The notes beneath the pieces were generated by a model, which was given only the letters and a program-made list of their open reading frames with translations, had not been told where the DNA came from and searched no databases. Shown in pieces: positions 36,952 to 55,842 of a DNA stretch of 64,000 bases (position 1 is the first letter of the stretch; the number at the start of each line of letters is the position of its first letter). The position numbers and the translations under genes are program-made. Origin of the DNA: a virus (taxonomy: Duplodnaviria > Caudoviricetes); IMG/VR virus record IMGVR_UViG_3300047625_000012, positions 183-64,182 of that record. One strand, written 5' to 3'.

Positions 36952-37872
36952 TTACAGGCCCGGAGTACCGTACAGACAGCGGGGGTCGGTGAAGGAGGGG
37001 ATATACCGCTCCGTCGCCTTGTACCGCATGCTGTCGGTCTCGAAGTCTCCCTCCATGCTCTTTTCCAGCGTCCGGCGCATGGCCAGCTTGAGCCCCTGAC
37101 GCACATCGGTCTGGATAAACCATGCCGTCTGTGAGGTAAGGCGCGCGATGTTAGCCTGACCCTTGGGCAGCAGCCCCAGGGACTTGATCGGGTTTACATC
37201 GTTGTTCGCGGTTCCCGCACGCAACACGCTCTTGAGGAGCACTTCGCCCTGCATGACGTTGGACGGGGAAGTGACCAGCTGCAACGGAGTCAGGCGGATG
37301 CGCTTGCCGTTGTTGTCCACCGCATTGCGGACCTGAATGAGCATCTGCTCCAGGGAGGTCTGCGAGAGCGCGGCCGCGGTCGTCAGCTGGTTCGAGAACG
37401 AACCGGCCGGGGGGGCCAGCGGATGGTTGGTCGCAATCAGTGCGACACCGTCACCGCCGGGGAAGGACGCATTGAACGCGTTGTTGATGACGTTCGCGCA
37501 CAGCGTCTCTTTCGTCTCCACCAGCGACTGCGCCAGATGTTCGGCGTAGATGGTGCCGATCTTGATGTGGTCACCGTCCTCGACCAGTACTTTGGTCAAC
37601 GCAAAAGCCAACCCGAAGACGGCGTACAGGTAGCGTTGGATGAACAGCACGCCTCCTGACTGGTAGGTAACCGGGGTGCCGTCAGGCAGTGCGGGAGCCG
37701 CACCCATCCCGAAGAGCACCGGCTCCTCGTGGTAGTTGCGCGGGGTGCCGCGGAACTCGCGGAATATCATCTTCCACTCATCGGCGCGTTGATCGTAGAT
37801 ACCATCGAAGGTTTCGTTGAGGATCGGCTCAACGACTGAGCGGAAGTCTGTACTCCGCATTGGAAGTGCCAT
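36952..37872 (-). CDS. Major capsid protein (HK97 fold, Bcep22/Mu-gpT-like)
   Basis: 306 aa; EE....G.AP..P.G....Y, GDGVAL....HP, NDVNP, AWF, GDFET..RYKATERY...DPR..YG.PG; AGGAG RBS. Confidence 0.9.
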   Translation of the reverse strand: MALPMRSTDFRSVVEPILNETFDGIYDQRADEWKMIFREFRGTPRNYHEEPVLFGMGAAPALPDGTPVTYQSGGVLFIQRYLYAVFGLAFALTKVLVEDGDHIKIGTIYAEHLAQSLVETKETLCANVINNAFNASFPGGDGVALIATNHPLAPPAGSFSNQLTTAAALSQTSLEQMLIQVRNAVDNNGKRIRLTPLQLVTSPSNVMQGEVLLKSVLRAGTANNDVNPIKSLGLLPKGQANIARLTSQTAWFIQTDVRQGLKLAMRRTLEKSMEGDFETDSMRYKATERYIPSFTDPRCLYGTPGL

Positions 37873-40334: not shown

Positions 40335-40865
40335 TTAAATGTAAGCTACCACGCTCAAAACCCGGTCCTCGGGGATACGCCCCTTCATGACAAGATCATC
40401 AAACAGAACAAACAACGCCTTGCCGTCCTCGCTGCCCGGCACATCCACCCACCACCGATCACCGCCGTATTTGGGCACCCGCACGTAATCCCCAACCTTG
40501 CACCAGGCGCCTTCCGGCCACGGCTTCAACGTCTCACGGTTGCAAAACGCCACCGGCCCCAGAGCGATCACCTTGGCAACCTGCATGTTCCACAGGTCGG
40601 TTTCGCGCGACTCCTCCGGGAGGTAGATACCGCCCTTGGTCCGCATCCGCGGCGTGCGGATCTGCACGAGGACATCAGTACCGAACGGAATCAGGTCAGG
40701 ATCAGCGACCGGAAACGCCTGCTCCAGCGTGTCGTAGGCGATGGATGACTTCGCGAACTTCGCAACGGCGAGGTGGTCCAGGTTTTCGAGGGGAACCTCC
40801 CGGCTCACCCGCCCCGTAAACTCGGACTTCTTCTCACGTCTTGCTGCGGTTTCGTCCCGGCTCAT
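40335..40865 (-). CDS. groES: Phage co-chaperonin GroES (Cpn10)-like
   Basis: P.G..VLVQ...RTKGGIYLP...AKVIALGP...WCKVGDYV..PKYGG. Confidence 0.85.
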   Translation of the reverse strand: MSRDETAARREKKSEFTGRVSREVPLENLDHLAVAKFAKSSIAYDTLEQAFPVADPDLIPFGTDVLVQIRTPRMRTKGGIYLPEESRETDLWNMQVAKVIALGPVAFCNRETLKPWPEGAWCKVGDYVRVPKYGGDRWWVDVPGSEDGKALFVLFDDLVMKGRIPEDRVLSVVAYI

Positions 40866-41049
40866 CCTCGTCCTCACGCACAGTCAACACTCTGTTCAGC
40901 GTTTCCTCAGCGAGCCTCAACCCTTCCAACCGACCTACGGCTACGCCCAATGCGTAGGCGGTCTTGTCGGGAGGGTTGGTCAGGCTGTCCACAGCTACTT
41001 TGCTGTGCAGCTCCTGCAGCTCACCGATATACCGATCTAAAACGGACAC
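40834..41049 (-). CDS. Small conserved head-module protein
   Basis: Y...VG...GL..A pattern that usually precedes phage GroES. Confidence 0.6.
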   Translation of the reverse strand: MSVLDRYIGELQELHSKVAVDSLTNPPDKTAYALGVAVGRLEGLRLAEETLNRVLTVREDEDEPGRNRSKT

Positions 41050-42063: not shown

Positions 42064-44655
42064 TCACGCACCTGAGCCGCCTGTTTCGTGTCCGCCGATA
42101 CCGGTACCCGTAGACAGGTCAGTCGAGTGTCCCGTCTCGATCTTGGCGGCTGCGATCTCCAGTGCGGTGGTGTTGTCGGCCTGATTGATTTTCTCGTGAG
42201 AGGCAATCTCTGCCTGCGTGTTCTGCGCCTCGCCCTGCTGCTCAACAACTGTCTGCTGCAGTTTCGCCTGATTCTCCGCAGCCTGCGACTGCTGATCCTG
42301 CTGACCCTTGGACTGCTGCAGCTGTTGCTTGCCCTGGTTGTTGGCGTTGGCAACCGCAATCGCGGTCTGTCCCGGGTCCATCGGAGGCGGCGGCATGAAC
42401 TTCTGCAGCACAGCCTGTGCCTGCTGGATCGCAGGGGGGATCTTGGCCAACACCTGTTTTGACGCGTCCATGACGTGATGCGAGATTTCCGCCAGCGTGT
42501 GGTCCATCTCTTTCTGCGTCTTGGGGTCTTTGTACTGGGTCAGCTCGCCTAAGTCTACCGGCTTACCCGCAACCGCCTCCAGCGCTTTCGAGCCCGTCTC
42601 AACAACTTGTGACAGGTACCAGTATGCAATATGCTCCACGAGGTGTTGCAGACACGCGGGAATGAATTTCGGCGCAATGATCGAGAGCATCCCGAAGAAC
42701 GGGCTCATCATGTAATCAAGATGCACCTGGATGTGCGCAAGCTGGTCCTGCTCGGGGAATGCACCCACCGGCCGCCCCAGGGTCATCGCGACATTCTCGT
42801 TGACGGCATTCAACTCCTGCATCTGCTGCTGCGGTTTCAGGAGGTCTACCGCGTTGGGGATCTTGGTCCGCTCTAGGATCAGCTCTTCTACCTTGCGAGC
42901 GTCGTACAGCTCCGGGTGCAGGTCGGCACGTTGTTGGATAATCTGCAGTTGCGCAAAACGCTGTACGTCGCTGAAGACTTGCGGATCAGAGACAGGGACC
43001 ACGTCGACCGGTCCTTCATAATCCGACCGGTAGGCGAGCATTTCGCCCGTATCATCAAAAATTTCCTCATCCGTGATGTACATCCGGTTGATGCGGTGGA
43101 GGATACCGATCAACCGATCCATCGCCGCGTGCAGCCGTTGGTGGATCGCCGACAGGACTTTCATGCCCTGCTCGATCAACGCGAGCGTCGTGCCCACCGG
43201 CATGTTGGGAGAGCCGTCCTCCGACAGGTTCTCAAACGTGGTGCGGATGAGCGCTTCACCCTGCTCGGTGCACCACCCCAACAGCTGATACAACATCGTG
43301 GACGGCGGGTTGAACGGTACGGCCATCAGGATCTTGCGGATGTCCTGATCCCCGATCGCAGCGCCTTCGATCTCCGTGACCCCGCACACGTTGAGATTGA
43401 GCGTTTCGCCGTTACCTCCGCCCCCTTTCAGGCGCAGCAGCGTCGGCAGATTCTGGATCATGGAGGTATCCAGGAGCCCGCGCAGGCTCCCGGTAGCCGC
43501 TCCGGCCAGCGAACCGGCATAGTGGAGCAGGCCCACGGACTGCGCGCCGCGCCACGGCAGGCACTCGAAGTCCACGAGCCAGCACATGTTCTCGCACTGG
43601 GGGTCGTCCTCTTCCCAGTTGCGCACCACGCGTAAACACTCACGCGAGACCGGATCGATGTCGACGAGATAGGGTTTCGGCCCCTCGCGCATCGCGACCG
43701 CCTCGGGGTCTGAATTGCGCCGGTCACCTGCCACCCGCAGCTGATCCGTGTCCTCAAGCTCCGCCAGCACCTCGCACACCAGGATGCGGCGCAAGCCGTC
43801 TTTGTTGTCGGCGGTGATGCTGCTCTTGCCTTCGACTTTGTCCGTCGCCTTTTCTGCCCGCGTTTTCTCCGGCATCTGCGCCGGGGCCATGAGCGGCACC
43901 TTGACGTAGTAATCCTGCCGGATGCGGGATTCCAACTCGTGCTGGGTAATCGTATCCACCAGGGTGCGCCGCTCAGCCGAATAGAAATCGCTCGCCGCTT
44001 CGGGTATCAACACCTGATCGATCGGCCAGAATGTCGGGACGGGCCGCTTCTTATCCGAGTCGTACACGAGGCGCATGTACTGCGAGCCGGCGGGCAGCTG
44101 CTGCGAGAGCAGCTTCTCCAGCTGCGAGCGGAATTCCGGCATCTGCTTCCGGAACTGCCAGTTCATGTGCGCGGTCTTGCGGTCCGCCTTCTGCAACCGG
44201 TCCGGGGTCTGTTTGCCCGGTATCCATGACTTCGTAGGGCCGTTGGGCGGCATCAGCTCGCCGATCGTGTGTGACTGGTAATACACGATCGCTTTGGACA
44301 TCATCGGGTGAGTCACTTTCGAACCTGCATCAAACGCAGGCGCGCTGACGCTTTCCCCCGCAAGCCCGGTGCGTTTGATTCCTTCCTCGTACTGTTTGTC
44401 CCGGTCCGCGCGCGACTGCTTGTCGTACTCAATGCGTTCCAACAGCTCCGTGGTGAATCCCTGCAGCTGGGTAGAGTCCAGCTCGGGGACCAGGTTGCGG
44501 TAGAACTCCGTCTCATCCGCAGGAGGCTTGTCGTCGCCTTCGTCTTCCGTCTTGACGATCGCACCGCCGTCGTCGGTGTCGGTCACTCCGGGGGAGGATT
44601 CGTTGGGCTCCCCATCCGAGGGGTAGGAGCTGTTCTCTCCGTCGTCAAGTGCCAT
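42064..44655 (-). CDS. Portal protein (P22/Bcep22-like)
   Basis: 863 aa; V.HP......Q....EL.P..GP.K, LR.LLD....NLP, PVGTTLALIEQG.KV.SAIH.RLH, Q-rich barrel tail. Confidence 0.9.
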   Translation of the reverse strand: MALDDGENSSYPSDGEPNESSPGVTDTDDGGAIVKTEDEGDDKPPADETEFYRNLVPELDSTQLQGFTTELLERIEYDKQSRADRDKQYEEGIKRTGLAGESVSAPAFDAGSKVTHPMMSKAIVYYQSHTIGELMPPNGPTKSWIPGKQTPDRLQKADRKTAHMNWQFRKQMPEFRSQLEKLLSQQLPAGSQYMRLVYDSDKKRPVPTFWPIDQVLIPEAASDFYSAERRTLVDTITQHELESRIRQDYYVKVPLMAPAQMPEKTRAEKATDKVEGKSSITADNKDGLRRILVCEVLAELEDTDQLRVAGDRRNSDPEAVAMREGPKPYLVDIDPVSRECLRVVRNWEEDDPQCENMCWLVDFECLPWRGAQSVGLLHYAGSLAGAATGSLRGLLDTSMIQNLPTLLRLKGGGGNGETLNLNVCGVTEIEGAAIGDQDIRKILMAVPFNPPSTMLYQLLGWCTEQGEALIRTTFENLSEDGSPNMPVGTTLALIEQGMKVLSAIHQRLHAAMDRLIGILHRINRMYITDEEIFDDTGEMLAYRSDYEGPVDVVPVSDPQVFSDVQRFAQLQIIQQRADLHPELYDARKVEELILERTKIPNAVDLLKPQQQMQELNAVNENVAMTLGRPVGAFPEQDQLAHIQVHLDYMMSPFFGMLSIIAPKFIPACLQHLVEHIAYWYLSQVVETGSKALEAVAGKPVDLGELTQYKDPKTQKEMDHTLAEISHHVMDASKQVLAKIPPAIQQAQAVLQKFMPPPPMDPGQTAIAVANANNQGKQQLQQSKGQQDQQSQAAENQAKLQQTVVEQQGEAQNTQAEIASHEKINQADNTTALEIAAAKIETGHSTDLSTGTGIGGHETGGSGA

Positions 44656-44841: not shown

Positions 44842-46383
44842 TTATCCATCGTAAGGGTTACTTCGTTTCCGTTGCTTGAGCCGCTCAGCCGCCGCCACGA
44901 CGGCCTTAATCGGATCGGCGCGCACTGTCAAGCGGATATTGAACTTCCGCATGAACAAAAGCAAAGCCTGGGTCCCCGTATCGAGCAGGTCATCATGCTC
45001 CAGCGACCCCTCCCCCACGTAGGTGCAGAACTGGTTGATGACGGGCTCTGCCCAGTCCCTGGGCTGGCTCGGGCGCTTCAAAGACTCGACCGCCCATACC
45101 CTCCCATGGGGGAACAACGGCGAGGCGCCATGGAGCTTGGAAAGCTTGTCCATGTCGGTAGGGAAGCGCTCCGCCAGAATCCCCTCCGTGGCGAGCTGCT
45201 GGACCAGAGACTTGCCCGAGCCGGTATCTTCGATCAGCAGCAGATCAATGGTCCGGCCCTGGTGGGACGGCCGCTGTGCGCGGGAGATGAGCGCGGGGCG
45301 CAGGAGGGGCTCTTCGGTATCCCCGTACGTGAAAGTCCGCTCGTGTTTCACCTTGCGCACCAGATCCGGAAAGCCCAGGTACTCTTCCCAGGCGTCCAGC
45401 AACATGATGTGGTCACGCCGTTCGTACTCAAACAAACCCCACACGGTACAGGCGGTCGGGTCGCCGGTCTGCTCCTTCTTGTTCCAGGTCTCCTCGGTAA
45501 AAGCCGTATCAAGTGACATTACTACGAAGCGGAATTTCGGCAACGGCTTTTTCGCCGGCCACAGCCGCCAGTCGCTGCGCTTGACGAACCCGGCTTCTTC
45601 CGGGTCGATTACCTCCCCGTAGATTTCCTGCCGCCCGATCCGGGTGCCTTCGTACTTGGCGATATTCTCGTAGAAAATATCCGACAGGTTTTCGGCGTTC
45701 TCGTAGGTACTGCCCGATATCGTGATGGAGTTTTTCAACGCCATCAGCATCTTGATGAACGGCTTGGGCTTCGGGGTGCCCGTCCAGAACACCTGCGGGT
45801 GTTTGCCTAACCGCAACCCGAATATGAAATTGTCAAACGCCTTTTCCGCGTAGCGCCAGGACGCAACCTCATCGAGCCAGCCCCGGTGACACTGCGGGCC
45901 GCGCAGACGCTCCGGCACATCCGCAGAGAAGCCCAGAATCTTCGCATCGTTGTAGAGGGTTATTTCCGGCGGTGACTTGGTCGAGTGTTTGATCAGCTTC
46001 CGGGGCAGCACCGGGTACTGCTTTCCCGGCGGTCCGATCAGCCCGGCTTTATCCTCATACGCACCATGAAGTCCTGTCGGCCCGTAGAAGCACGTCTTGA
46101 TCAGATCTTCATGGGTAGGAGCGATGACAAAGTTATACGAGCCTGGATCGGTAGCCGCCATGTCCGCGATCCAGCGGGCACCGGATACCGTCTTACCGAA
46201 TCCGCGTCCGGATTTGATCCCGAAGAAGTCCCACTTGTTATCGTCCGGGGGCAGCTGCTTGGCCCGGGCGAGCGCCTTCCAGCGCAACCGCGCGCCGAGA
46301 AGCTCCAGGTCTTCATCCGAGAAACGGGACAGCTTGTCGCGCAGTTCGCGCGGGTCTTCGAAGGGGAGTTTGACAGCGGCCAT
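44842..46383 (-). CDS. terL: Terminase large subunit
   Basis: Q motif, Walker A GRGFGKT, LRGPQ, Walker B WLDEVA, TGTP, GRQEIYGE, nuclease SLDTA...HDDLLD. Confidence 0.95.
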   Translation of the reverse strand: MAAVKLPFEDPRELRDKLSRFSDEDLELLGARLRWKALARAKQLPPDDNKWDFFGIKSGRGFGKTVSGARWIADMAATDPGSYNFVIAPTHEDLIKTCFYGPTGLHGAYEDKAGLIGPPGKQYPVLPRKLIKHSTKSPPEITLYNDAKILGFSADVPERLRGPQCHRGWLDEVASWRYAEKAFDNFIFGLRLGKHPQVFWTGTPKPKPFIKMLMALKNSITISGSTYENAENLSDIFYENIAKYEGTRIGRQEIYGEVIDPEEAGFVKRSDWRLWPAKKPLPKFRFVVMSLDTAFTEETWNKKEQTGDPTACTVWGLFEYERRDHIMLLDAWEEYLGFPDLVRKVKHERTFTYGDTEEPLLRPALISRAQRPSHQGRTIDLLLIEDTGSGKSLVQQLATEGILAERFPTDMDKLSKLHGASPLFPHGRVWAVESLKRPSQPRDWAEPVINQFCTYVGEGSLEHDDLLDTGTQALLLFMRKFNIRLTVRADPIKAVVAAAERLKQRKRSNPYDG

Positions 46384-46610: not shown

Positions 46611-46797
46611 GTGCCCGTGCCCTGCGACGACGCTCCTCCAGCTCCCCGCAGATCGTACGCATGTCTTCAATTACGCTGCCCGGCATACGGACTACTACCG
46701 AAGACCGGAACCAACCTTGGTACTTGAGTGCAGACAGCTCCTGCAGAATCTCCGACAGCCTCGGGTCACTGACCGGTGGGCGTAACAGCCGACGCAT
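46603..46797 (-). CDS. Hypothetical protein
   Basis: Overlapping-gene chain. Confidence 0.5.
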   Translation of the reverse strand: MRRLLRPPVSDPRLSEILQELSALKYQGWFRSSVVVRMPGSVIEDMRTICGELEERRRRARAHD

Positions 46798-47371
46798 TCT
46801 GCGCGCTCCGTAATTTAGCGTTGTCTTCCAACAGCGCCGCGATCTGCATCGACATGCGGCTCAGGGTCTGGGTCATCTCCGCATTCTGCTTGAGCAGCTC
46901 ATCCAGCCGCCCATTCAACTGTTTGTTCTGCTCCATCGTCTCGGAAAGCCTGCGGTCATCGCCCTGCGCGTGGGGGGACACAGAAGGACGGTTGCCCGCA
47001 AGCTTCCCGAGACTTTCCTTTACTTCAGGCTGGTACGACGCACGCATGTTGGCCATCTGAGCGCGCTGCGCTATCTGTGCATCCGACAGATTCAGGTGTT
47101 TGTAGACCGCACCGGCTTTGCGCGCATCATCCGGCGGGTTGCAGGCAAGACAACGCACCCAGGCCCACTTCATGAGACGCTTGGCGCCGACTCCGCCCGC
47201 ACCGAACAGCGGCTGCGCTTTGTTGCCCCCGCCGGCTGCGACGAGTCCCGGGGTCATGCCGTTCTGGCATTCCGGATTACGGCAGTCCGATCTTGCGCGG
47301 CGTGTCTGCGGACCGGCCTGGGCACGTGCTGCCAGCTCCCCCAGGCCTACGCTTTTATCCTGCGTAGCCAC
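46766..47371 (-). CDS. Zn-finger plus coiled-coil protein
   Basis: CxxxxC...CxxC then heptad repeat. Confidence 0.65.
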   Translation of the reverse strand: MATQDKSVGLGELAARAQAGPQTRRARSDCRNPECQNGMTPGLVAAGGGNKAQPLFGAGGVGAKRLMKWAWVRCLACNPPDDARKAGAVYKHLNLSDAQIAQRAQMANMRASYQPEVKESLGKLAGNRPSVSPHAQGDDRRLSETMEQNKQLNGRLDELLKQNAEMTQTLSRMSMQIAALLEDNAKLRSAQNASAVTPTGQ

Positions 47372-47374
47372 TCC

Positions 47375-47869
47375 CTACTCCTGTAACACCATAATACTGT
47401 TGATACCGTCATTACGGAACACCAGCTCGTTAACGACCTTGAAATCTGCCTCAGGGATAGCGATACGAGTACGAATCTTATACTTCGTCTCGGTAACCGG
47501 AAGGCCTTCATAGACTACGCTGCCCGGCCCGCAGCTATCCTCCTCAATCCGCATCTCCTTGGCGTACCGCCAGTACAATACGGGGCGCGCTGACTTACAG
47601 GTAGCGTGGAGTTTAAAGAGCGCCGTATACAAAGTCTGCCGCAGTTGTTCCGCTGCGTTCTCTATAGAAGCCGGCGCAATAGCCGCCAGTGTCATGTAAG
47701 GATAGTCTTGATATCTCCTTACAGCGTAGTCCCACTCAGCATGCCATGCGCGATGATCCCCATCCTTACAATCAAACATGCGTTCGATCTGCAATACTAA
47801 TGCTTCTATAGACCCGAACGGCGCTTTGCGCGGTGCGGGCTCCCCAGAGCTGTTGGTTTCGTCACTCAT
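47375..47869 (-). CDS. Hypothetical protein (lower GC)
   Basis: 164-aa ORF; visibly more AT-rich than its flanks. Confidence 0.65.
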   Translation of the reverse strand: MSDETNSSGEPAPRKAPFGSIEALVLQIERMFDCKDGDHRAWHAEWDYAVRRYQDYPYMTLAAIAPASIENAAEQLRQTLYTALFKLHATCKSARPVLYWRYAKEMRIEEDSCGPGSVVYEGLPVTETKYKIRTRIAIPEADFKVVNELVFRNDGINSIMVLQE

Positions 47870-48285
47870 AACACCGGTACCTTACGGCCGTTCTCAGGCC
47901 ACCATCCGACCTTGCGCCCGAGGATCAGCGCCTGCGGGCCTTTGCTCCAGGCGAATACATACTTCAGGTTGTCGCACGAATTGCGCCACGCTGACCAGCA
48001 GTACGCACGCCACCACGCAGGCGCATCGGGCATGTAAGGCGACAGTACCCCGTTGATCCAGATGAGCGCGTAGATCCCGCTCACGCCGTCTTCCGGGTTG
48101 TCGTAAAGGAAGCCCACCGGAGCAAACCGCCAACGGTCGACTCTACGCTGGTTATCTTTTACAGACGGAATAGCGCTGACGTACCAAGCATGCGTCAGGC
48201 AGAACGGAATGAGCACGACCCAGCCCAATACTGTGGCCAACAGCTGTATCAACTGCACAACGGTGAACCACAACCAGCCGATCAC
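47866..48285 (-). CDS. Trp-rich membrane protein
   Basis: N-terminal TM; DNPEDGVSG...W.AWRN conserved phage pattern. Confidence 0.65.
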   Translation of the reverse strand: MIGWLWFTVVQLIQLLATVLGWVVLIPFCLTHAWYVSAIPSVKDNQRRVDRWRFAPVGFLYDNPEDGVSGIYALIWINGVLSPYMPDAPAWWRAYCWSAWRNSCDNLKYVFAWSKGPQALILGRKVGWWPENGRKVPVL

Positions 48286-48590
48286 GGTAACGCCTCGTAC
48301 GCCTCTTGCAGCGACTTACCGGACAGCAACAGTTTCTCGAACTTATCTATATCTTTATCCCGCAGCCGTTCGCCCCAGCCTTCCGCCTCAACTGCTGACA
48401 TCACGTAGGTCGTCTCAGTCATGATCCGCATGTCCCGCGTGACCAGCAAGCACGTATCTCCTTCTCCTACCTTGCGCGCCTTGAAAAGATGGAATGCACA
48501 CTGGTGATCACAGTTGCAGGCTTCTTTGGCTCGATCCCAACTCACGGCATTGCACTCCCGACACGTCTGTCGTTGGCTTCCAGCACCCAT
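48282..48590 (-). CDS. Hypothetical protein
   Basis: Cys-rich N-terminus; start uncertain. Confidence 0.45.
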   Translation of the reverse strand: MGAGSQRQTCRECNAVSWDRAKEACNCDHQCAFHLFKARKVGEGDTCLLVTRDMRIMTETTYVMSAVEAEGWGERLRDKDIDKFEKLLLSGKSLQEAYEALP

Positions 48591-48949
48591 TCGGACTCGT
48601 CCAGTGCGGGCGCCTCGACGATATTGACATACGGCGCGAACGGATTCGACTTGGTATGAGCCAGGATCGAGAACACCACATTACGCGCCTGCTGTAGCCG
48701 GATGGTGTGTACGTACAGGATATACGCGAACGAGGGGCCTACGTCCCGCGCGGCCATCTCCAGCGACATCCTGTTGAGCATGAAGTAGGTCGGCTCCCTG
48801 CGGAGGTCACGCAACGGCTCATAATCCGGACGCTCTTCGCACAGGTCAAAGAACCGTTTGGAGCGCGCCCGCTCCGCGATCTCATCATTGAGCCGGTCAA
48901 CTCCGCCGCGTCGTGTCATAGAGCCCCAGCTCTTCGGGAAGATATTCAC
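48542..48949 (-). CDS. Capsid A-domain-like protein (paralog of 53282-53578)
   Basis: L..SLE.A....PS..Y.LYV.......A......I.A.T..NPFAPY...V....L...EW aligns without gaps to 53282-53578; resembles MCP ~169-255. Confidence 0.6.
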   Translation of the reverse strand: MNIFPKSWGSMTRRGGVDRLNDEIAERARSKRFFDLCEERPDYEPLRDLRREPTYFMLNRMSLEMAARDVGPSFAYILYVHTIRLQQARNVVFSILAHTKSNPFAPYVNIVEAPALDESEWVLEANDRRVGSAMP

Positions 48950-49292
48950 CGTTCAATGCCATCTCAGCCGCGCGTCGGATGACGGGGTCAGTGTCGATGA
49001 GCTTTTTTATTTTTGGGGAGACGATCAGCTGACGCGGTACGATCGTAAGCCTGGACCACTCACCTGCTTTTTTCAGGTTTACCAACATCTCCTCAAGCGA
49101 TTCCTGCGTGAGACTCGCTGCGGCTGCGTTGGAAAAATTACTGTTTGTCGTGTTCCAATAAGTACCGTTCGGCCATACGAACAGCTTCGATCGTGGCGGC
49201 AACGAGATGACCGGCTCAACCGTTCCGCGCCACGGGACGAGTACCGCACCGGCGCTGCCGGCCAACAGCGATATGAAACCCCGCCGGTTCAC
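48897..49292 (-). CDS. Tat-leader protein carrying a major-capsid fragment (MCP 159-203)
   Basis: MNRRGFISLLAGSAGAVLV leader; FSNAAAASLTQESLEEMLVNLKKA...RLTIVPRQLIVSP vs MCP FSNQLTTAAALSQTSLEQMLIQVRNA...RIRLTPLQLVTSP. Confidence 0.8.
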   Translation of the reverse strand: MNRRGFISLLAGSAGAVLVPWRGTVEPVISLPPRSKLFVWPNGTYWNTTNSNFSNAAAASLTQESLEEMLVNLKKAGEWSRLTIVPRQLIVSPKIKKLIDTDPVIRRAAEMALNGEYLPEELGLYDTTRRS

Positions 49293-49555
49293 TCGACATC
49301 CTGAGTCAACATGAACGTCTCTCCGTAGACGACATGCTCGTACGACGGCGGGTTGAAAGCGGTGTTTAGTATGTTGTGCACCAGGCTTTCTTCAGTCTCG
49401 ATCATCGAGCGCGCCAGGTGTTCCGCATAGAGCCGGCCGATCTTTTCCCAATCCGGCTCGACCGCGCGCAATGCCGTCTGTGCCAGCTTGGTCTGAGATG
49501 CAAACGCAACGACGGCAGTCGCCGCAAGCGCTTTGAAAAAGCCTCTGCGGTTCAC
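49289..49555 (-). CDS. Tat-leader protein carrying a major-capsid spine-helix fragment (MCP 101-134)
   Basis: MNRRGFFKALAATAVVAFA leader; 20/34 ungapped identities to own MCP; GTGA overlap (alternative ATG 49561). Confidence 0.85.
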   Translation of the reverse strand: MNRRGFFKALAATAVVAFASQTKLAQTALRAVEPDWEKIGRLYAEHLARSMIETEESLVHNILNTAFNPPSYEHVVYGETFMLTQDVE

Positions 49556-49788
49556 GGACATTCCCCCAGCTTCATCAGCTCCAAAGCGCAATCAGCTTGT
49601 GCAGGCGGCTTGCGCAAGGGGTTCACGTCGCAGTCTGCGATTCCAGTACGACAACCCTCACAGCACGGGTTCAAATAGCCGTTCCACCACTCCGCAATGC
49701 CCTTACGACGGAATGCCTCACGAAAGCCCGACGGCAATCTACGACGGTAAAACTCACTGGGTCTCACGGCCGACCCAACGCATGCCAC
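49552..49788 (-). CDS. Small Cys-rich hypothetical protein
   Basis: CCEGC...C...C...C; overlapping chain. Confidence 0.5.
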   Translation of the reverse strand: MACVGSAVRPSEFYRRRLPSGFREAFRRKGIAEWWNGYLNPCCEGCRTGIADCDVNPLRKPPAQADCALELMKLGECP

Positions 49789-49961
49789 AGGTGCCAGAGC
49801 GGGTCACGCCAGGGAGGCACCCGGTAATCCGCCGGCAGATTGTTGGTCTGAAAACCCCACCGGATGAAGCGTTCACGCGCGACGTTGTGGCGCAGGCGGA
49901 TCACCGCACGGCGGGTACGCTTACCCAGCTTCGGCGGGATCGTCCCCCTCCGGAGTCTCAT
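49764..49961 (-). CDS. Small basic hypothetical protein
   Basis: ATGA overlap. Confidence 0.5.
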   Translation of the reverse strand: MRLRRGTIPPKLGKRTRRAVIRLRHNVARERFIRWGFQTNNLPADYRVPPWRDPLWHLWHALGRP

Positions 49962-50359
49962 CGTCCCTCCTCATCCCGTCCCGGCTGTTTCGGTCGACCG
50001 TACGGGTACTCGAACAGCTCCTGCTTGAGCAGGTAACCTTCCAGCAACCACACCTTGCTGACGGCGTCCGCGCGTGCAGCCATACGCCCGACATTTGAAT
50101 CGAAGTTGGTCAGGGAAGACGGCGCAGACATGCCCGTGACCTTGAACCCGTTCCTGAGCACCAGCACGCACACGGTGAGCGCCGGCATCTCACCGCTTAT
50201 GAACTTCGGGTCCACCTCCGGGTTGGTGAGCCAGATGGGGATCGCATCGCCTGTGATATAGGCTTCGGCGACGATCGTCGCCTCGACGTGCGCCAGCGTA
50301 ATGCGCGGTGCGGTGAGCCCCTTCGCCTGGATCTCCGTCTCGATCTCGTTATCCGTCAT
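49958..50359 (-). CDS. N4 gp49 / Sf6 gp66 family protein (family of the Acb4 cGAMP sponge)
   Basis: IE.EIQAKGLTAPRIT..H.E...LT.CVLVLRNGF.VTG.SA.....NFD...GR..AR..A..KVW.LEGYLLKQ. Confidence 0.85.
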   Translation of the reverse strand: MTDNEIETEIQAKGLTAPRITLAHVEATIVAEAYITGDAIPIWLTNPEVDPKFISGEMPALTVCVLVLRNGFKVTGMSAPSSLTNFDSNVGRMAARADAVSKVWLLEGYLLKQELFEYPYGRPKQPGRDEEGR

Positions 50360-50661
50360 GGTGCAAACCCTTTGTAGTGTTCGTAGTGTACCGCCCAGAA
50401 CTCGCGCTTGACGACATAAGCGACCTAGTCCACGCACTCGTTGCAGATACAGACCCCGTCGTGATGAACCAGCAGCTCGGTATTGTCCTGCAGACTCGCG
50501 CAGTAATGACAGCGGCGTTCCTGCCTGATCAGGATGCTGATCTCCTCCAGAGCGTGGGGAGAAAGACGCGGACGGCGCCAGCGGCCCCACAGCCACCAGC
50601 GTACCGGGTTGGATCGCGGATGAGCCGTAGAACAGAGCGCAACGCCGTCCGACATCTTCAC
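50356..50661 (-). CDS. ClpX-type C4 zinc-binding-domain protein, interrupted by in-frame TAG at 50425-50427
   Basis: CHYC......ELLV....VCICNECVD; frame continues 22 codons to a TGA overlapping the next ATG. Confidence 0.6.
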
Positions 50662-50731
50662 TCCTTACAACACGCCTGACACGGCTTGCACCGTGCCCGC
50701 CAGCGTTCAGGTAGCCGGCAGATCCAGCGCA

Positions 50732-51097
50732 CTAGCCAAGCTGGATAGGCGCACCCAGTTGAGGAGGGACGACAGTGTCCACCGTCGCGGTGATCGGCGG
50801 CGAGAAGTCACCCTCGTTGCCCTGCGCGTCCATCAGTGTGAACACGAAGTCGTAGGAGCCGTTACCCAGTCCCCCGGGCAGCTCGGTGGAGATGGGATCG
50901 TCCCAGTACTGCACAGGCGGTGTGCCCACGGTCTTCGTGGTCAGTGCGGACACCGGCCCGGCATCGATACGCGCCGCCTGGGTATAGGACGGCGTGAGCG
51001 GTGTGGGGCCGTAGTACACGATCAGGTGATCGGTACCCGGCGGCGCAGGCGTGGGGATGGGAATGCCGAAATCCTTCAAAGGCACAGTCTTGGACAT
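50732..51097 (-). CDS. Ig-like / FN3-like domain protein
   Basis: G.YDFVFT..DA.GNE.DFS....TVDT..P; GAGGAG RBS. Confidence 0.65.
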   Translation of the reverse strand: MSKTVPLKDFGIPIPTPAPPGTDHLIVYYGPTPLTPSYTQAARIDAGPVSALTTKTVGTPPVQYWDDPISTELPGGLGNGSYDFVFTLMDAQGNEGDFSPPITATVDTVVPPQLGAPIQLG

Positions 51098-51110
51098 GAG
51101 GTCGACTCCT

Positions 51111-51494
51111 CTAGTGGGTCGGTTTGGAAAGCGTGGAAGGGATGGGAACGCCGATGCTGTTGGCGTACACCGGAGCAGACATGACACCCGCGGAGTTCAC
51201 CGCGAAAATCTGCACGCACACCGGGTTCAGATTCGTGGGGTAGATCGGCGACCGGGTCGCAGTCGCTGCCGCGTTGATACCGCCCTGGACCGTACTGACC
51301 GTATGGGAAGCCGTGCACGAGCCCCACTCGATGCGGTAGCCGGTAAGGTCGGTGAGCGGCGTTCCATCGCTGTTCTGTACCGGCGCCGTCCAGCCGACGA
51401 ACAGTTTGGCCGCGTATACCGGGTAGGCCGCACCGACGAAGATCGCGGTGCATAGCGCTACGATGATCAACAGCAGAAGCGGTGTGCGTTTCAT
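51111..51494 (-). CDS. Exported fibronectin type III domain protein
   Basis: Signal/TM leader; WTAPVQNSDGTPLTDLTGYRIEWG...AVNSAG..S. Confidence 0.8.
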   Translation of the reverse strand: MKRTPLLLLIIVALCTAIFVGAAYPVYAAKLFVGWTAPVQNSDGTPLTDLTGYRIEWGSCTASHTVSTVQGGINAAATATRSPIYPTNLNPVCVQIFAVNSAGVMSAPVYANSIGVPIPSTLSKPTH

Positions 51495-52198
51495 CGCACG
51501 ATTCCCAGGCCGCCCGGAATCGCCGACGTAGCGCTGACAGTAGTCTCGCTGCTGGTTATCTGACCCGCACCGTACTGCCGGCCTTTAGCCGTTACGCTCA
51601 ACGACGCCCATTCATCCGGGACCACGGGGTGCAAACCGTCTACGAGGGAGCCCGGGTGGTTGAATACCGGCTTACCCTGGAGCACGTGCAACAACAACGA
51701 CCCTTCCATCCACACATCGTTGCAGCAATAGTCGATGACCTTGCCGCGTTTACCCTGTTGCCACCACACCGGCGCCAGCGCACCGTGGCCGGTCTTGCGG
51801 ATACCGAGGGTAGCCTGACACACCGCATCCAGGCCCCAGCCGCCGTGCGTACGCGGGTTGAATGTATCCGGGTTCAGGTCGAGCGCGATCCAGATCCCGC
51901 GCAGGATATCGTAGTGATGCTCCGCATCGACGACGATGTCATGCTCCAGAAGCAGCCGGTTGTCGAAATTGACGGTGTTGAAGCCCGCGGTCCACTTGCC
52001 TGCGATGTACGCCTGGAAGTCTTCCAGGTCCTCTTCGAGAAATACGCGCGTCAGGTGCGTGACGATGTCGTACGTACAGACGCATGCGATACCCATGTTG
52101 GCGAAGTCGCGCCACCCGTCGCAGTACTCGATGCCTTCGAGACGCTCTTCGGTGCGGCTCCGGATGGCTTTCTTGATCTCAACATCAACTACGATCAT
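51491..52198 (-). CDS. DnaQ/RNase H-like 3'-5' exonuclease
   Basis: VVDVE, GFN..NFD, HYDIL, LDAV...LG, YCCNDV (DEDDy). Confidence 0.85.
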   Translation of the reverse strand: MIVVDVEIKKAIRSRTEERLEGIEYCDGWRDFANMGIACVCTYDIVTHLTRVFLEEDLEDFQAYIAGKWTAGFNTVNFDNRLLLEHDIVVDAEHHYDILRGIWIALDLNPDTFNPRTHGGWGLDAVCQATLGIRKTGHGALAPVWWQQGKRGKVIDYCCNDVWMEGSLLLHVLQGKPVFNHPGSLVDGLHPVVPDEWASLSVTAKGRQYGAGQITSSETTVSATSAIPGGLGIVR

Positions 52199-52455
52199 GT
52201 GCCGTACTCCGAATTCATACAAACCAACACGTGTTCCTTGCTGGGGGCGTCTTCAAGGCTACCTTCGACATCGATCGCGACGAACCGGGTGTGACCATAA
52301 CAATAGCCTTCACGCCATGCCGGATCGGTAACGCCCGGGAAAGCCAACGAACGACTGCAGTCGCACGCGCCGTTACCCTCCGTCCACCAGAATACCGACA
52401 TGTCAGCGCCCTTGGCGGTCTTTCCGGTACGTAGATCAAGAAATGTCGGGATCAC
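52195..52455 (-). CDS. Hypothetical protein
   Basis: FWWTEGN.ACDC.R conserved phage motif. Confidence 0.7.
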   Translation of the reverse strand: MIPTFLDLRTGKTAKGADMSVFWWTEGNGACDCSRSLAFPGVTDPAWREGYCYGHTRFVAIDVEGSLEDAPSKEHVLVCMNSEYGT

Positions 52456-52682
52456 GATGGCGTGCCTTGTGAAAGCTGTTTCAATTGCGCGCCCAGCTGC
52501 CCGATGTTATCCCCGAAAGGTACACCGAACTTCGCACAGCCGATATGGAAATACAATGAGCGCAGCATCTGTGCGCTGAGCCGTACCGGGCTTTGCGTTT
52601 CCAACAGATCGAACTGCCACTGGTTGTTGCGCAGGTACGCAAAGCACTCATCAAGTGAGTGTACCGGGGTATCGCGGTTCAC
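52452..52682 (-). CDS. Hypothetical protein
   Basis: GTGA overlap chain. Confidence 0.6.
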   Translation of the reverse strand: MNRDTPVHSLDECFAYLRNNQWQFDLLETQSPVRLSAQMLRSLYFHIGCAKFGVPFGDNIGQLGAQLKQLSQGTPS

Positions 52683-52855
52683 GCGGCGTACTCCCCACCC
52701 AGATTTTCGCGCATGGTCAGCGGCTTGCGCCTGGCGCGCACTTCGGCTTTCTCATCCTCACTGAACTCACGCACTTCACCGTTGGGCAGGATCTCCAGCA
52801 TGACTTCATCCTCGCGTTCCAACATGCGCGCGAGTTCGTCGATGGTAGGCTTCAT
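52679..52855 (-). CDS. 58-aa hypothetical protein
   Basis: MKPTIDELARMLEREDE...; 4-bp overlaps on both sides. Confidence 0.6.
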   Translation of the reverse strand: MKPTIDELARMLEREDEVMLEILPNGEVREFSEDEKAEVRARRKPLTMRENLGGEYAA

Positions 52856-53100
52856 TTCGGCGGCCCGTTGGGTGCATTCCTGTGCCAGCTGCGTGAGCGG
52901 TTGTTGCTCGGCACATGGCGCTCATCCTGCGAGGGGAGCTTGGCGCACTGGCACGTCGCACAGTGTACTTGCCCCGCTTTGTCCAATTCCGCCAGCGCGT
53001 GGACAGTTCCGAGGTAGTGTGCGCTTCCTGTAGCCCCTTCCGCCTCGAACAAGGTTTTCAAGCTCTCCAGCTGTGCGCGCGCAATCAACAATGCAGTCAT
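52852..53100 (-). CDS. Hypothetical protein
   Basis: ATGA overlap chain. Confidence 0.55.
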   Translation of the reverse strand: MTALLIARAQLESLKTLFEAEGATGSAHYLGTVHALAELDKAGQVHCATCQCAKLPSQDERHVPSNNRSRSWHRNAPNGPPK

Positions 53101-53282
53101 AACCCCTCGTCCTCCTTCACAACAGTCCCGGGCATGAGGAACGCGAAGAAGACTTCCGCGCGCTGCACGATCGCAGCGGTATCCTGCGGAGCAATCCCTT
53201 GGAAAGCCTCGTGGAGTGCCAGCTCCAATGCTTTGGTGCGCAGTTCGGCTTCTACCGTCACGCTCCAGGAGTTCCTGGGCAT
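53097..53282 (-). CDS. Small helical hypothetical protein
   Basis: R.KALELA......IV.RA..F..FL pattern; TAATG overlap. Confidence 0.6.
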   Translation of the reverse strand: MPRNSWSVTVEAELRTKALELALHEAFQGIAPQDTAAIVQRAEVFFAFLMPGTVVKEDEGL

Positions 53283-53578
53283 TACAGTCCCTCCGATCCC
53301 CATGACTCATCCTCACCGTTGGTGATGCACCACTCCTGCGGTTCGAGCCTGCCATCGTAGACGAGGCTGATATACGGCGCGAAAGGGTGCTCCTGCGTGG
53401 TAGCGCCGATGGTCTTCAACAGCCTTGCTGCCCAGGGGTGCAGACGCTCACCGACATACAACACATAGGAACGTGAAGGACGCATACGCAGCGCGCATTC
53501 CTCCAGTGAGGTGACCGACAGGGTGCACGTCGTCGGCAACCGCGAATAAAGCCTGAGTTCCTGCGCCTTCGTTGTCAC
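53282..53578 (-). CDS. Capsid A-domain-like protein (paralog of 48542-48949)
   Basis: LSVTSLEE...LLKT...P...RL...W.I vs MCP LSQTSLEQ...LLKS...NP...RL...WFI. Confidence 0.6.
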   Translation of the reverse strand: MTTKAQELRLYSRLPTTCTLSVTSLEECALRMRPSRSYVLYVGERLHPWAARLLKTIGATTQEHPFAPYISLVYDGRLEPQEWCITNGEDESWGSEGL

Positions 53579-53904
53579 AGTCCTTCAACCTCCGGGTGCA
53601 GGAAGTGCTGGATGGTTGCAGGATAATCGAGCAGCCGCTGCAACCTGCGATCATACGTGATGTGCTCAGACGGGTAGATCCGCACCGAGCCGCGGGTGCC
53701 TTCGAAGTGCAGCGCATCCGGGGTGACCCGCGCGTTGTGATCGCGCTCCCGGTCCAGACTCTGCCCCAGGAAAGCCAGCACGTCCTGTTTCATGGAAGGG
53801 TACGGCACGATGACGATCGCGACTTCACCGTTACGGGCTACGCGCAGTGCGTGTTGCAACCGGGCTTTGAACAGGTCGCGGCTGCGTTCGTGGTGCTCGC
53901 TCAT
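53575..53904 (-). CDS. Hypothetical protein, possibly a degenerate terminase-ATPase subdomain
   Basis: AR.......G....VIVP ... RL pattern weakly resembles TerL; no Walker A. Confidence 0.55.
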   Translation of the reverse strand: MSEHHERSRDLFKARLQHALRVARNGEVAIVIVPYPSMKQDVLAFLGQSLDRERDHNARVTPDALHFEGTRGSVRIYPSEHITYDRRLQRLLDYPATIQHFLHPEVEGL

Positions 53905-54206
53905 GGCGACACCTTCAGCCGCTCATAGTTGAGTGCGGCTTCCCAGGCGTTCAGGATCAACCGGGCGTTGATGACCCAGCGTCTCTCAACCTCACCTTCC
54001 CCGCGCCCGCTTGCCCGGGTCATAAACCCGAAGAGCTGCTCTGCAATCTGCTGTGAGGTTACTTTGTACGCGTCCGGTTGCCAGCCACGGTAAGGGAAAG
54101 ACAGCAGAACGATCTTGCGCCCTTCACTGTCGACGGCCATCGAAGCAGCCATCAGTGCCGCTTCAAACTCCGCTTCCGCACAACGTAACGCTCTGGAGTC
54201 AGTCAT
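53901..54206 (-). CDS. Hypothetical protein with short MCP-like segment
   Basis: EAALMAASMAVDSEGRKIVL vs MCP EQMLIQVRNAVDNNGKRIRL. Confidence 0.55.
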   Translation of the reverse strand: MTDSRALRCAEAEFEAALMAASMAVDSEGRKIVLLSFPYRGWQPDAYKVTSQQIAEQLFGFMTRASGRGEGEVERRWVINARLILNAWEAALNYERLKVSP

Positions 54207-54640
54207 TCGCCGTCATCCTTGTTGAACTGCGGGTGCTTGAGCTTCATGTGCGCCGCAAGTTGTTTGAACGTGCGGTGACAGCACGGGCATACACCGTGTC
54301 TGATCCGGTTGCGCAATCGGGTGTTGACGCCCTTGCGCGCGGTAAGTCTCCGCTCGGTGTGCTCACGGGCTTTGCGTTCCGCGGCAGCATTCTCCCGGGC
54401 GAAGTCCAGTGCGCGTTGGCGCGCGGCCAGCTCCTTATCCTTGATCTCCAGCTGTCTTTGGAGCTTCTGAGCTTCGGTCTCCCCGTAGCTCTGTCTATGG
54501 CCGTTCGGGCAATGAAACGTAGTCCCGTCACGCAGCCACATGGCCCGGGATTGACTGTCGACCGCGAACACGATGCCGCCCTGGCAACATGCGAGCGTCT
54601 CGAACGTCTGATTGAGGTTGATGCAATGAACAACACTCAT
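54203..54640 (-). CDS. Zn-finger / coiled-coil / C2H2-finger protein
   Basis: FHCPNGH; coiled coil; CPCC.R.F..L..HM..KH. Confidence 0.75.
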   Translation of the reverse strand: MSVVHCINLNQTFETLACCQGGIVFAVDSQSRAMWLRDGTTFHCPNGHRQSYGETEAQKLQRQLEIKDKELAARQRALDFARENAAAERKAREHTERRLTARKGVNTRLRNRIRHGVCPCCHRTFKQLAAHMKLKHPQFNKDDGE

Positions 54641-54819
54641 GACAGCCTCGTGGGCATCCCGTCCCGCACCCACGGGGTCGACAGGGGCGTAATGATGTAC
54701 AGCGGAAACACGCTGTGTGTTTCAGGCGTGCGAATCCAACAGCGGTGGTGCGCGTTGTAACGGTAGCGCGGCTTGACCCCCATGGGCCATACGTTGCGCG
54801 AAAGACGCGGCAGGGTCAC
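54637..54819 (-). CDS. Hypothetical protein
   Basis: 4-bp overlaps on both sides. Confidence 0.45.
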   Translation of the reverse strand: MTLPRLSRNVWPMGVKPRYRYNAHHRCWIRTPETHSVFPLYIITPLSTPWVRDGMPTRLS

Positions 54820-55010
54820 AACGCGCTCCGGGTGAGCAGCTGGTCAATCTGGTGCGGTGTCAGCTCACCGAAACCAACCAGGATCTCGTGCTGGATCTCA
54901 CTCGCACAGACGCGGTCCATGTCGCGGTGCGCGTCCTCCAGCCACTGCAGCAGCCCGGACAGCTCGCGCGAGGGTTCCGGATACGGAATGGTTTCGATGC
55001 GCTCGGTCAT
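54816..55010 (-). CDS. Small protein with portal-like segment
   Basis: IPYPEPSRELSGLLQW vs portal 446-461 VPFNPPSTMLYQLLGW. Confidence 0.6.
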   Translation of the reverse strand: MTERIETIPYPEPSRELSGLLQWLEDAHRDMDRVCASEIQHEILVGFGELTPHQIDQLLTRSAL

Positions 55011-55219
55011 GTGCTCTCGTCCACGGTCGGCACATCGCGCCACTCAACCGGGCGATCGAACGACATGCCCGGCTCGGACCGGAAATGCTCTTCCCAACGC
55101 TGCTGTAGTACCCACACGGTCGGACCTCTCCCGCTACCCGGGTCCTGCGAGTCATCCGTGCGGATCAACCAACGCAGTTGAGCCGTACACACCCACCAGC
55201 TGCGCTCATCGTCACTCAT
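55007..55219 (-). CDS. Hypothetical protein
   Basis: LRW...VLQQ.W...EWRDVP conserved phage motif. Confidence 0.7.
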   Translation of the reverse strand: MSDDERSWWVCTAQLRWLIRTDDSQDPGSGRGPTVWVLQQRWEEHFRSEPGMSFDRPVEWRDVPTVDEST

Positions 55220-55842
55220 CGTTCCCGCGGCTCCTCGGTTCGTCCTGACGGTTTCGTCTTGCCGTCAGCCTTTGGAGAAACTAACTTTACGATCGAATCA
55301 ATCAGCGCGTTGCGCTCCTCCACCTTGACGGCCAGGCCGTCAGGCGTGCGCAGGTCAACTTCACTGCGTTCACCGTAGACCGCACGCAGCACCTTCTGCG
55401 CCATCCATTTGCGCGACTCAACACGCAGCCTGGAGCGCTCGAAGTGCTCGCGGTCAAACACCCGCAGGACGCCTTTCTTCGTCACCCGGTTGACGTAGTC
55501 ATTGGTCGCGTTGTCCGCGATCGTGACGATGTCGCCGACCATGTGCTCGCAGCAGCTCTCCCACGCGATCCGGAAGCGTTTCTCGAAGTCCTCGTTCTGT
55601 CGTCGCCAGCGCCCCAGCACGCGCCAGGTGGGCATGCCCGGGTCATCACGGCAGATCTGCGTAGGAGGCTCCCCGTCTGCTACCCGGTCGAGCAACGCCT
55701 CAGCTACGTCTTTCGAGAACGTGCGCGGGCGTACGGCGGGCGGCGGTTCGGGCGCCTTCGGGCGATCTACCTTGCGGAGCTTGCGGACAACACGTTTCGG
55801 ACCTCGTCTGCGCTTTTTCGTGATCTTGCGTGCGGGAGCCAA
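55216..55842 (-). CDS. terS: Terminase small subunit (Sf6/P22-like)
   Basis: F....A..L...VADGE....ICRD..MP....W; IAD; RSRLRVESRKW...YG; TTG start. Confidence 0.85.
   Translation of the reverse strand: MAPARKITKKRRRGPKRVVRKLRKVDRPKAPEPPPAVRPRTFSKDVAEALLDRVADGEPPTQICRDDPGMPTWRVLGRWRRQNEDFEKRFRIAWESCCEHMVGDIVTIADNATNDYVNRVTKKGVLRVFDREHFERSRLRVESRKWMAQKVLRAVYGERSEVDLRTPDGLAVKVEERNALIDSIVKLVSPKADGKTKPSGRTEEPRER

Follow-up and report, generated by a model that had tools for sequence, protein, structure and literature searches.

The internal proteins of phage T4 carry a conserved capsid-targeting leader that directs them into the prohead, and their bodies are polymorphic. Bacterial signals for twin-arginine translocation (Tat), including the uncleaved Rieske/PetC anchors, have RRxF at the border of the n-region and the hydrophobic h-region, then a moderately hydrophobic uncharged stretch and then a basic residue. 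SaPIbov5 Ccm and T4 gp24 are extra proteins derived from the HK97 capsid fold, with a role other than the main shell lattice. The Johnson fold consists of N, alpha and beta elements, ordered N-alpha-beta in HK97 and N-beta-alpha in BPP-1, and these have been argued to be the sole feasible orders (Zhang et al. 2013, PMC3863775). Here we describe a locus in which such parts meet. Between the genes for the small (TerS) and large (TerL) terminase subunits of a soil-derived phage, two overlapping genes, ORF A and ORF B (ORF, open reading frame), each join a twin-arginine-type leader to a piece of the major capsid protein (MCP). The window, that is, the whole stretch of 64,000 nucleotides analysed, is nearly the whole of an IMG/VR record of 64,182 bases with a completeness estimate of 94%; the record is classed as linear, and end repeats were not found. 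A DNA run from a soil metagenome contains the stretch and may be where it came from; no RNA run containing it was among those listed.

How does this locus compare with the described systems? The leaders have the features of bacterial Tat signals named above, but they are phage-encoded, their cargo is tiny and their export is a prediction, and the leader together with ~15 following residues is nearly invariant over a hypervariable family. Like the T4 internal proteins, they pair a short conserved N-terminal leader with highly variable small proteins in a plastic locus; the T4 leader, however, is not a hydrophobic RR signal and the T4 cargo is not capsid-derived. SaPIbov5 Ccm and T4 gp24 are full-length proteins of cytoplasmic assembly, whereas here there are fragments with export-type leaders. 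As in the permuted Johnson fold of BPP-1 and epsilon15 (PMC3863775), beta comes before alpha, relative to the window-type MCP, in all eight family members that hold several MCP segments. Unlike BPP-1, these proteins have 100-170 amino acids (aa), no N-arm or E-loop and an export-type leader, and cannot form a shell; ORF A and ORF B of the window hold one element each. Literature searches for capsid proteins with twin-arginine signals, for superinfection exclusion, for phage Tat substrates and for capsid decoys returned nothing relevant at the level of listings and abstracts. Taken singly, the parts are well known (Tat signals, the HK97 fold with one permutation, leader-tagged phage proteins, capsid paralogs); their combination was found nowhere and seems undescribed.

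What could such proteins be for? We favour, at a probability of about one half, an envelope-located role in conflict for the leader-tagged capsid-fragment genes. The host Tat pathway would export the leader proteins to the periplasm, or an uncleaved leader would anchor them, and they would act at the envelope in conflicts between phages or between phage and host (shutting out related phages, say, or binding an envelope factor), rather than as a cytoplasmic decoy.

Two leader genes with pieces of the capsid protein

The original prediction, made from the letters of the sequence, saw the interval from terS to terL (the island) as a chain of tiny coupled genes over ~9 kb, several of them encoding pieces of the phage's own capsid, portal and possibly terminase. 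The chain is present: ~9 kb of small minus-strand ORFs, many of them with 4-nt stop/start overlaps. Every island ORF was compared with MCP, portal, TerL and TerS by blastp and then by Smith-Waterman (SW) alignment against 500 shuffles; further checks were profile-profile alignment by hhalign and searches of family hidden Markov models (HMMs) against all 950 stop-to-stop frames of the window. Among 29 ORF families scanned in this way, just four relations reached E<=1e-3: ORF A with MCP, ORF B with MCP, the small gene at 54816 with portal, and ORF C with its paralog ORF C' (Table 1).

Both MCP relations are strong. The ungapped match of ORF A to MCP 101-134 with 20/34 identical residues was reproduced, and blastp extends it to 50% identity over 44 aa (E 1e-11; SW z 19.8, 0/500 shuffles as good). 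When family is compared with family, hhalign aligns ORF A with MCP ~91-136 at a probability of 98.2 (E 3.6e-14). ORF B matches MCP ~158-203 as predicted (blastp 41% over 46 aa, E 2e-6; SW z 9.2, 0/500), and its family aligns with MCP 154-203 (hhalign probability 97.1, E 5.3e-11). The profile of the ORF A family, run against 5.8e9 proteins, retrieves 20 MCPs (PF25209/PF10124; 298-304 aa), with E between 1e-8 and 2e-5. Besides the window's own genes there are seven homologues of ORF A (67-102 aa) and 21 of ORF B (77-133 aa). The complete HK97 fold with N-arm, E-loop, spine helix, A domain and P domain is present in neither product, as ORF A covers just MCP ~96-136 and ORF B just ~153-203; judged by sequence, they are derived from capsid proteins and are themselves not capsid proteins. 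The MCP family matched no solved structure in a sequence search, so we infer the spine-helix, alpha and beta assignments on the window MCP. Recent gene conversion between the MCP gene and ORF A or ORF B was considered and rejected, the DNA identity being ~64% with no long identical runs. A complex prediction of ORF B (36-131) with ORF A (23-90) scored 0.00 and speaks neither for nor against an interaction.

The leaders are of one type. In ORF A, N-R-R-G-F-F-K is followed by an uncharged stretch ending in A-F-A; in ORF B, N-R-R-G-F-I-S is followed by a G/A-rich uncharged stretch and then by P-W-R-G..E-P..L-P-P-R. The GTG at 49555 as start of ORF A fits the M-N-R-R start of the homologues and a GGGGGA 6 nt upstream (an alternative is the ATG at 49561), and the GTG of ORF B overlaps the ORF A stop (GTGA). 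RRGFF at residue 5 of ORF A (ATG form) and RRGFI at residue 3 of ORF B match the default TatP expression RR.[FGAVML][LITMVF] (PMC1182353). The same expression matches 125 of the 138 members of the leader-gene family described below, 122 of which also have an uncharged stretch of at least 12 residues; the h-region after the motif is uncharged, with a mean Kyte-Doolittle hydropathy of 1.61. The 13 exceptions are mostly calls that start inside or after the leader or lack it, and P0052 has H-R for R-R. Over 123 aligned members, R3, R4 and F6 hardly vary. TIGR01409, a curated Tat profile with a cut-off of 16.7 bits, is passed by three of the ten members tested (P0147 20.1, P0110 17.4, P0116 17.2), and some members match Pfam TM_PetC below its cut-off. 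The first 11 residues of the leader equal those of Tat signals in two lactonase-like proteins from betaproteobacterial metagenome-assembled genomes, signals which end in a cleavage-type W-A-Q-A. Given the expression match, the uncharged stretch, the identity to host signals and the TM_PetC matches, the leader has the appearance of a true Tat signal, or else of an anchor inserted by Tat.

The idea that the second half of the leader derives from the MCP N-arm, a relation that also appears as a minor second stretch in the HMMER output, was dropped, with hhalign P 0.24 and 28/100 column shuffles scoring as high. A phage-encoded TatA was sought in the phage and none was found.

Are these genes decaying, as pseudogene debris would? 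They are not: the ratio of non-synonymous to synonymous change (dN/dS) is 0.1-0.6 and synonymous sites are near saturation. The ORF A leader has a non-synonymous difference (pN) of 0.025 against a synonymous difference (pS) of 0.79, and the remainder of ORF A a dN/dS of 0.24. For ORF B the ratio is 0.10-0.26 in the leader, 0.28-0.60 in the MCP-like part and 0.07-0.43 in the tail. Between the window and the related locus L005 (related loci and family members go by our L and P handles) many synonymous differences lie beneath identical leader residues, so the leader is conserved at the protein level. It is highly probable, in our view, that ORF A and ORF B are genuine accessory genes of the phage, kept by selection, in which a Tat-type leader is fused to a piece of an HK97-fold MCP of the phage's own family.

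Table 1. Coordinates in the window of the genes discussed
Feature	Position	Strand	Remarks
TerS	55216-55842	-	phrog_1482, 5e-31; upstream border of island
Portal-motif small gene	54816-55043	-	probable ATG 55010; ~35-aa motif common to portal ~437-471
Small ORF, claimed MCP-like	53901-54206	-	claim not supported; no homologue among related loci
Small ORF, claimed TerL-like	53575-53904	-	claim not supported; one homologue (L006)
ORF C'	53282-53578	-	diverged ORF C paralog, 34% identity, without the N-terminal helix region
gp49/Sf6 gp66 gene (PF13876, Acb4-family)	49958-50596	-	domain at residues 99-193 of longest frame; probable start internal ATG near 50359
ORF A	49289-49555	-	twin-arginine-type leader and segment homologous to MCP ~96-136 (putative spine helix)
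ORF B	48897-49292	-	twin-arginine-type leader, variable linker, MCP ~153-203 segment, conserved helical tail (L-I-D-T-D-P...)
ORF C	48542-48919	-	125 aa, no leader; directly downstream of leader-gene cassette
TerL	44842-46383	-	downstream border of island
Portal protein	42064-44655	-	source of motif common to 54816-55043
MCP	36952-37872	-	306 aa; PF25209 34 bits, PF10124 (Mu gpT-like) 23 bits; source family of ORF A and ORF B fragments

A leader-gene family with hypervariable C-termini

How widespread are such genes? An exhaustive hmmsearch with the ORF B family gave 118 cluster representatives at E<=1e-3, 58 of them at <=1e-10. With one exception the 118 clusters have 35-172 aa, and for most of them the match is confined to profile positions 1-37/45, which is the leader; behind it the C-termini are hypervariable, with many classes that bear no relation to one another. 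The repetitive P0140 (1023 aa, E 2e-5) was excluded from all family counts as a likely chance match, and the short or leaderless P0103, P0104, P0112, P0119, P0131 and P0150 were kept out of the leader alignment and retained in the counts over 138 members. Pfam and PHROGs have no family that covers the leader genes: Pfam gives just Tat, PetC-anchor and gpT matches in a few members, and in PHROGs three of 123 members match families of major head proteins (two in phrog_371, one in phrog_9953). No leader gene of the family turned up when 185,579 prokaryote species genomes were scanned twice, and as far as seen the family is confined to phage DNA.

What do the C-termini contain? At E<=0.01 the MCP-family HMM matches 47 of the 138 members and none of 690 shuffles; two members pass the gathering score of PF10124. 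The segments represented are MCP 91-140 (the putative spine helix), 151-203, 241-267 and 269-303, and MCP 1-70 and 205-240 are not covered by any member. All eight members with several segments place the C-terminal segments before the 139-203 segment, a permuted order which, to judge from the alignments, follows the BPP-like beta-alpha arrangement without the N element. P0116 holds segments of ORF A type and ORF B type in a single chain, so the ORF A/ORF B pair of the window may be a split form with a duplicated leader. An origin of the other C-terminal classes in other proteins of the window phage was considered and set aside, as tblastn of the members against the whole window gives MCP as the only convincing match, with others at E ~0.007.

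The genes behave as a cassette. Immediately upstream of ORF C there are 0-3 copies of them, with stops that overlap the starts: three in L015, two in the window, one each in L005/L016/L017 and L018, and none in L004, L007, L008, L010 and L011; ORF C follows in every one of these loci. In L015 (577-1435) the three tandem genes before the ORF C homologue are one with a B-type leader and an unrelated C-terminus, a homologue of ORF A and a homologue of ORF B, the last with an extra motif in its linker that resembles the MCP C-terminal strand. In the distant phage L012, whose MCP is 37% identical, two tandem leader genes, both with MCP pieces, lie upstream of portal, and the first scores higher against the window-type MCP than against its own (SW 85 vs 62).

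Another phage, L013, has two adjacent genes starting with M-N-R-R upstream of TerS (1140-1930). One, the first, carries an L-A-A-C box like that of lipoproteins; its neighbour combines a B-type leader with a Y-Q-Y-R-W-N-W C-terminus, of a class common to about eight members and possibly immunoglobulin (Ig)/PKD-like.

The island around the leader genes

The prediction had listed five further genes of the island as pieces of the phage's own proteins, and its view of a self-matching island is partly confirmed: capsid in two genes, strongly; portal in one, weakly; terminase not at all. The small ORF said to resemble the TerL ATPase is no closer to TerL than a shuffled sequence (SW z -0.1, 262/500 shuffles as good; hhalign P 0.075; no HMM match at E<=0.05). 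Likewise, the short MCP-like stretch claimed for its upstream neighbour is at chance level (SW z 2.6, 13/500 shuffles; hhalign P 0.02).

ORF C (48542-48949 in the prediction) and ORF C' had been described as paralogs resembling the MCP A domain. Their paralogy stands (z 21.9, HMM E 2e-8); a sequence match to MCP does not (hhalign probability 0.7%, E 0.084; SW z -1.4 for ORF C and a non-significant 3.5 for ORF C'). ORF C is retained at 71-77% identity in 11 of the 11 related loci that cover its position. Its AlphaFold2 (AF2) model (48545-48919) has a predicted local distance difference test (pLDDT) score of 78 and a predicted template-modelling (pTM) score of 0.68. Among the 50 entries listed by VIA-align for this model, 34 are capsid or encapsulin, at Z 4.1-6.2 and a root-mean-square deviation mostly of 5-8 Å; V-ATPase E, FliH and InvA domains score equally, and this Z range is common for the tool. 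The listed entries include 7rwz, SaPIbov5 Ccm, a protein that redirects capsid size, and 1yue, T4 gp24, a second capsid paralog. Foldseek found nothing at E<=1e-3 for the model (best PDB entry E 0.01; best BFVD entry a phage capsid protein, E 0.013). The model is suggestive of the spine-helix/A-domain part of the HK97 fold, and ORF C may possibly be a minimal HK97-like domain.

The portal-motif gene, claimed over 54816-55010 as similar to portal 446-461, fails in pairwise comparison (z 1.4, 53/500) and has a weak family-profile match: with the HMM of three sequences (window, L004, L006), portal is the best non-self hit of the 950 frames at E 2.1e-4, and hhalign of this three-sequence family gives P 2.2e-4 and a probability of 45% over ~35 aa. 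The motif, [IL]-P-[FY]-x-x-P-S-x-x-L-[FY]-x-L-L-[GQ]-[WF], occurs in 3/3 homologues and 7/7 portals. That the gene shares it with portal is weakly supported. L022 and L023 were rejected as further members of this family, since they look unrelated and dilute the portal signal.

The prediction had also placed the fragments beside a gp49/66 gene of the Acb4 family; this setting was borne out, and the region is a variable accessory one. The gene matches PF13876 with 82 bits against a cut-off of 27 (E 4.4e-23; 81 of 82 profile positions) and lies ~400 bp upstream of the capsid-fragment genes. PF13876 is the family of the Acb4 sponge (bioRxiv 10.1101/2024.12.30.630793). The island gene is a member by its Pfam score and marks the region as accessory, possibly anti-defence; it adjoins the capsid-fragment genes and is not one of them.

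The closest cultured phages are the Caulobacter phages GB2A, RLK, KcrB and RW (TerL 47% identical), and a search for near-identical DNA in the cultured-phage collection found none. In RLK the island is absent and the terS-terL gap is only ~1.3 kb, which makes the island an insertion characteristic of the group to which the window's phage belongs. In the RLK record (L019, OQ135106.1 45128-62366) the annotated terminal repeats are identical to each other, 2,940 bases long, and take in the small genes that precede terS. Just upstream of TerL, the window has a 201-aa gene (46766-47371) kept in every relative at 55-70% and without a family match; at the corresponding terS-terL position RLK has a gene of 222 aa with the annotation 'large terminase subunit'. 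The gene at 47866-48285, between ORF C and TerL, encodes 139 aa with a long hydrophobic N-terminus, likely a membrane protein, with 74% identity in L008/L010 and no family match.

Searches of the remaining island ORFs with Pfam, PHROGs and NCBIfam gave only two matches. One is phrog_33336, of unknown function (1.4e-29), for the 156-aa product of 54203-54673, which has weak zinc-finger-like matches at its C-terminus and is conserved in L004. The other is the start of the 'minor tail protein' phrog_11445 (3.7e-8) for 51111-51494, which begins with a signal-like hydrophobic stretch. The neighbouring 50732-51187 has weak Ig-like matches (Big_13, DUF4625) below cut-off, and both of these genes are kept in four to five relatives. 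A scan of the island for promoters and terminators gave counts near the shuffled expectation. In the head module, between portal and the putative scaffold, 40335-40877 has a GroES-like match (phrog_3188, 6e-7).

A proposed envelope role weighed against other explanations

What counts against an envelope-located role? The two leaders of the window fall below curated Tat cut-offs (TIGR01409: ORF A 14.5 and ORF B 11.6 vs 16.7 bits; PF10518 on ORF A: 15.5 vs 22.7 bits); Tat-signal HMMs are short and misses are common. The TatP expression alone gives 15-23% false positives among RR-bearing cytoplasmic and membrane proteins (PMC1182353). A mere signal peptide would seldom be as close to invariant as the h-region and the P-W-R-G..E-P..L-P-P stretch behind it are here, a hint that they serve a different purpose or a further one. 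MCP similarity is undetected in two thirds of the members, and the MCP content may be ancestral baggage instead of a functional part. L006 has a leaderless ORF B-like gene (7751-7936) between the gp49/66 gene and ORF C; this gene is a cytoplasmic variant or else a copy in decay. The AF2 model of ORF B shows no compact fold (pLDDT 61.7, pTM 0.31), and Tat normally carries folded proteins. Finally, a host Tat system is assumed, the data single out no particular envelope target, and we know of no periplasmic partner of an MCP. What do the alternatives offer?

Capsid proteins are sensed by defence systems such as CapRel and Lit. Since Avs7 and Dsr1 also recognise MCP (bioRxiv 10.64898/2026.01.04.697583), the MCP and portal fragments could be baits for host capsid or portal sensors, as the original prediction had it, acting in the cytoplasm as precursors or exporting a bound sensor by the Tat hitchhiker route, which moves folded complexes (a reference listed in PMC13673990). 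Hypervariable C-termini with different MCP epitopes fit an arms race, and the genes lie in a variable accessory island near an Acb4-family gene. An export leader is, however, needless for a cytoplasmic sponge and adverse to it: RRxF points to export or anchoring, a misfit with the titration of cytoplasmic sensors (CapRel, Lit, Avs) and with the poisoning of head assembly unless the precursor acts before export, and the simple cytoplasmic decoy is thereby made unlikely. The many members with no detectable MCP piece argue the same way, the L012 fragment nearer to a foreign than to the resident MCP is a misfit with a mimic that tracks its own capsid, and in listings and abstracts the literature searches turned up no phage-encoded capsid decoy; we regard baits for host sensors as an unlikely explanation. 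Quite unlikely as well is a cassette system in which a fixed twin-arginine leader and interchangeable, permuted virion-protein pieces, mainly of capsid, would be sent through host Tat as baits. Such baits could remove capsid-binding factors (host sensors, rival assembly proteins) from the cytoplasm by hitchhiking, or capsid surfaces shown in the envelope could block related phages; ORF C and ORF C', as possible free minimal HK97 domains, and the portal-motif gene would then make the island a store of structural-protein mimics. Could the proteins be directed at capsids themselves, as a dominant-negative poison of rival head assembly, as a modifier of assembly or size, or as head-delivered proteins? 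MCP pieces could dock on MCP by strand or helix complementation, the genes lie on the same strand within the packaging/head block, and there are precedents in the conserved leader and polymorphic cargo of the T4 internal-protein loci and in SaPIbov5 Ccm, an MCP homologue that redirects capsid size. This is improbable in our view: a hydrophobic leader with invariant RRxF, equal to host Tat signals, is unlike known capsid-targeting leaders, export would part the proteins from cytoplasmic assembly, and five close relatives with the same head genes lack the leader genes, which are hence dispensable for assembly.

Is the leader instead the working part? It might engage or jam the Tat translocon, or be a weakly hydrophobic, releasable membrane segment that affects energisation or the timing of lysis, the C-termini being largely filler from gene debris with MCP as a frequent donor. 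The leader has a pN of 0.025-0.2 vs 0.4-0.5 elsewhere, its h-region is G/A-rich and most of the 118 clusters have only the leader in common, with C-termini that are extremely diverse and, for ORF B, not predicted to fold alone. Random filler would hardly explain why the C-terminal parts are under purifying selection (dN/dS 0.07-0.6), why the ORF B tail motif is conserved and why the MCP segments stand in an ordered, structurally permitted arrangement in 8/8 multi-segment members, and so this explanation, too, strikes us as doubtful. Non-functional remnants of duplicated structural genes, open by chance, would account for fragmentary and variably present genes, for an ORF B without a confident fold and for the leaderless variant in L006. 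They would not account for purifying selection with saturated synonymous sites, for conservation across many contigs and 118 clusters or for tight translational coupling with plausible ribosome-binding sites, and at their DNA identity to the MCP gene the sequences are old yet intact; debris is very improbable. An envelope-located role in conflict is therefore the reading we retain, at the probability given above.

The phage family of export-tagged, permuted capsid fragments exists, is large and is out of the ordinary. Bacterial immunity has capsid proteins among its main sensed patterns, and until lysis these proteins are considered strictly cytoplasmic. If the leader proteins are exported, phages put capsid-derived domains into the envelope; should the proteins work before export, they would be the first example of capsid mimics turned on defence or rivals. 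Among the family members are natural HK97 folds in minimal and in permuted form, which bear on the origin of this fold and on the ways in which it can be cut and rewired. Ordinary signal peptides are less conserved than the leader, which may reveal a new mode of engaging the Tat machinery.

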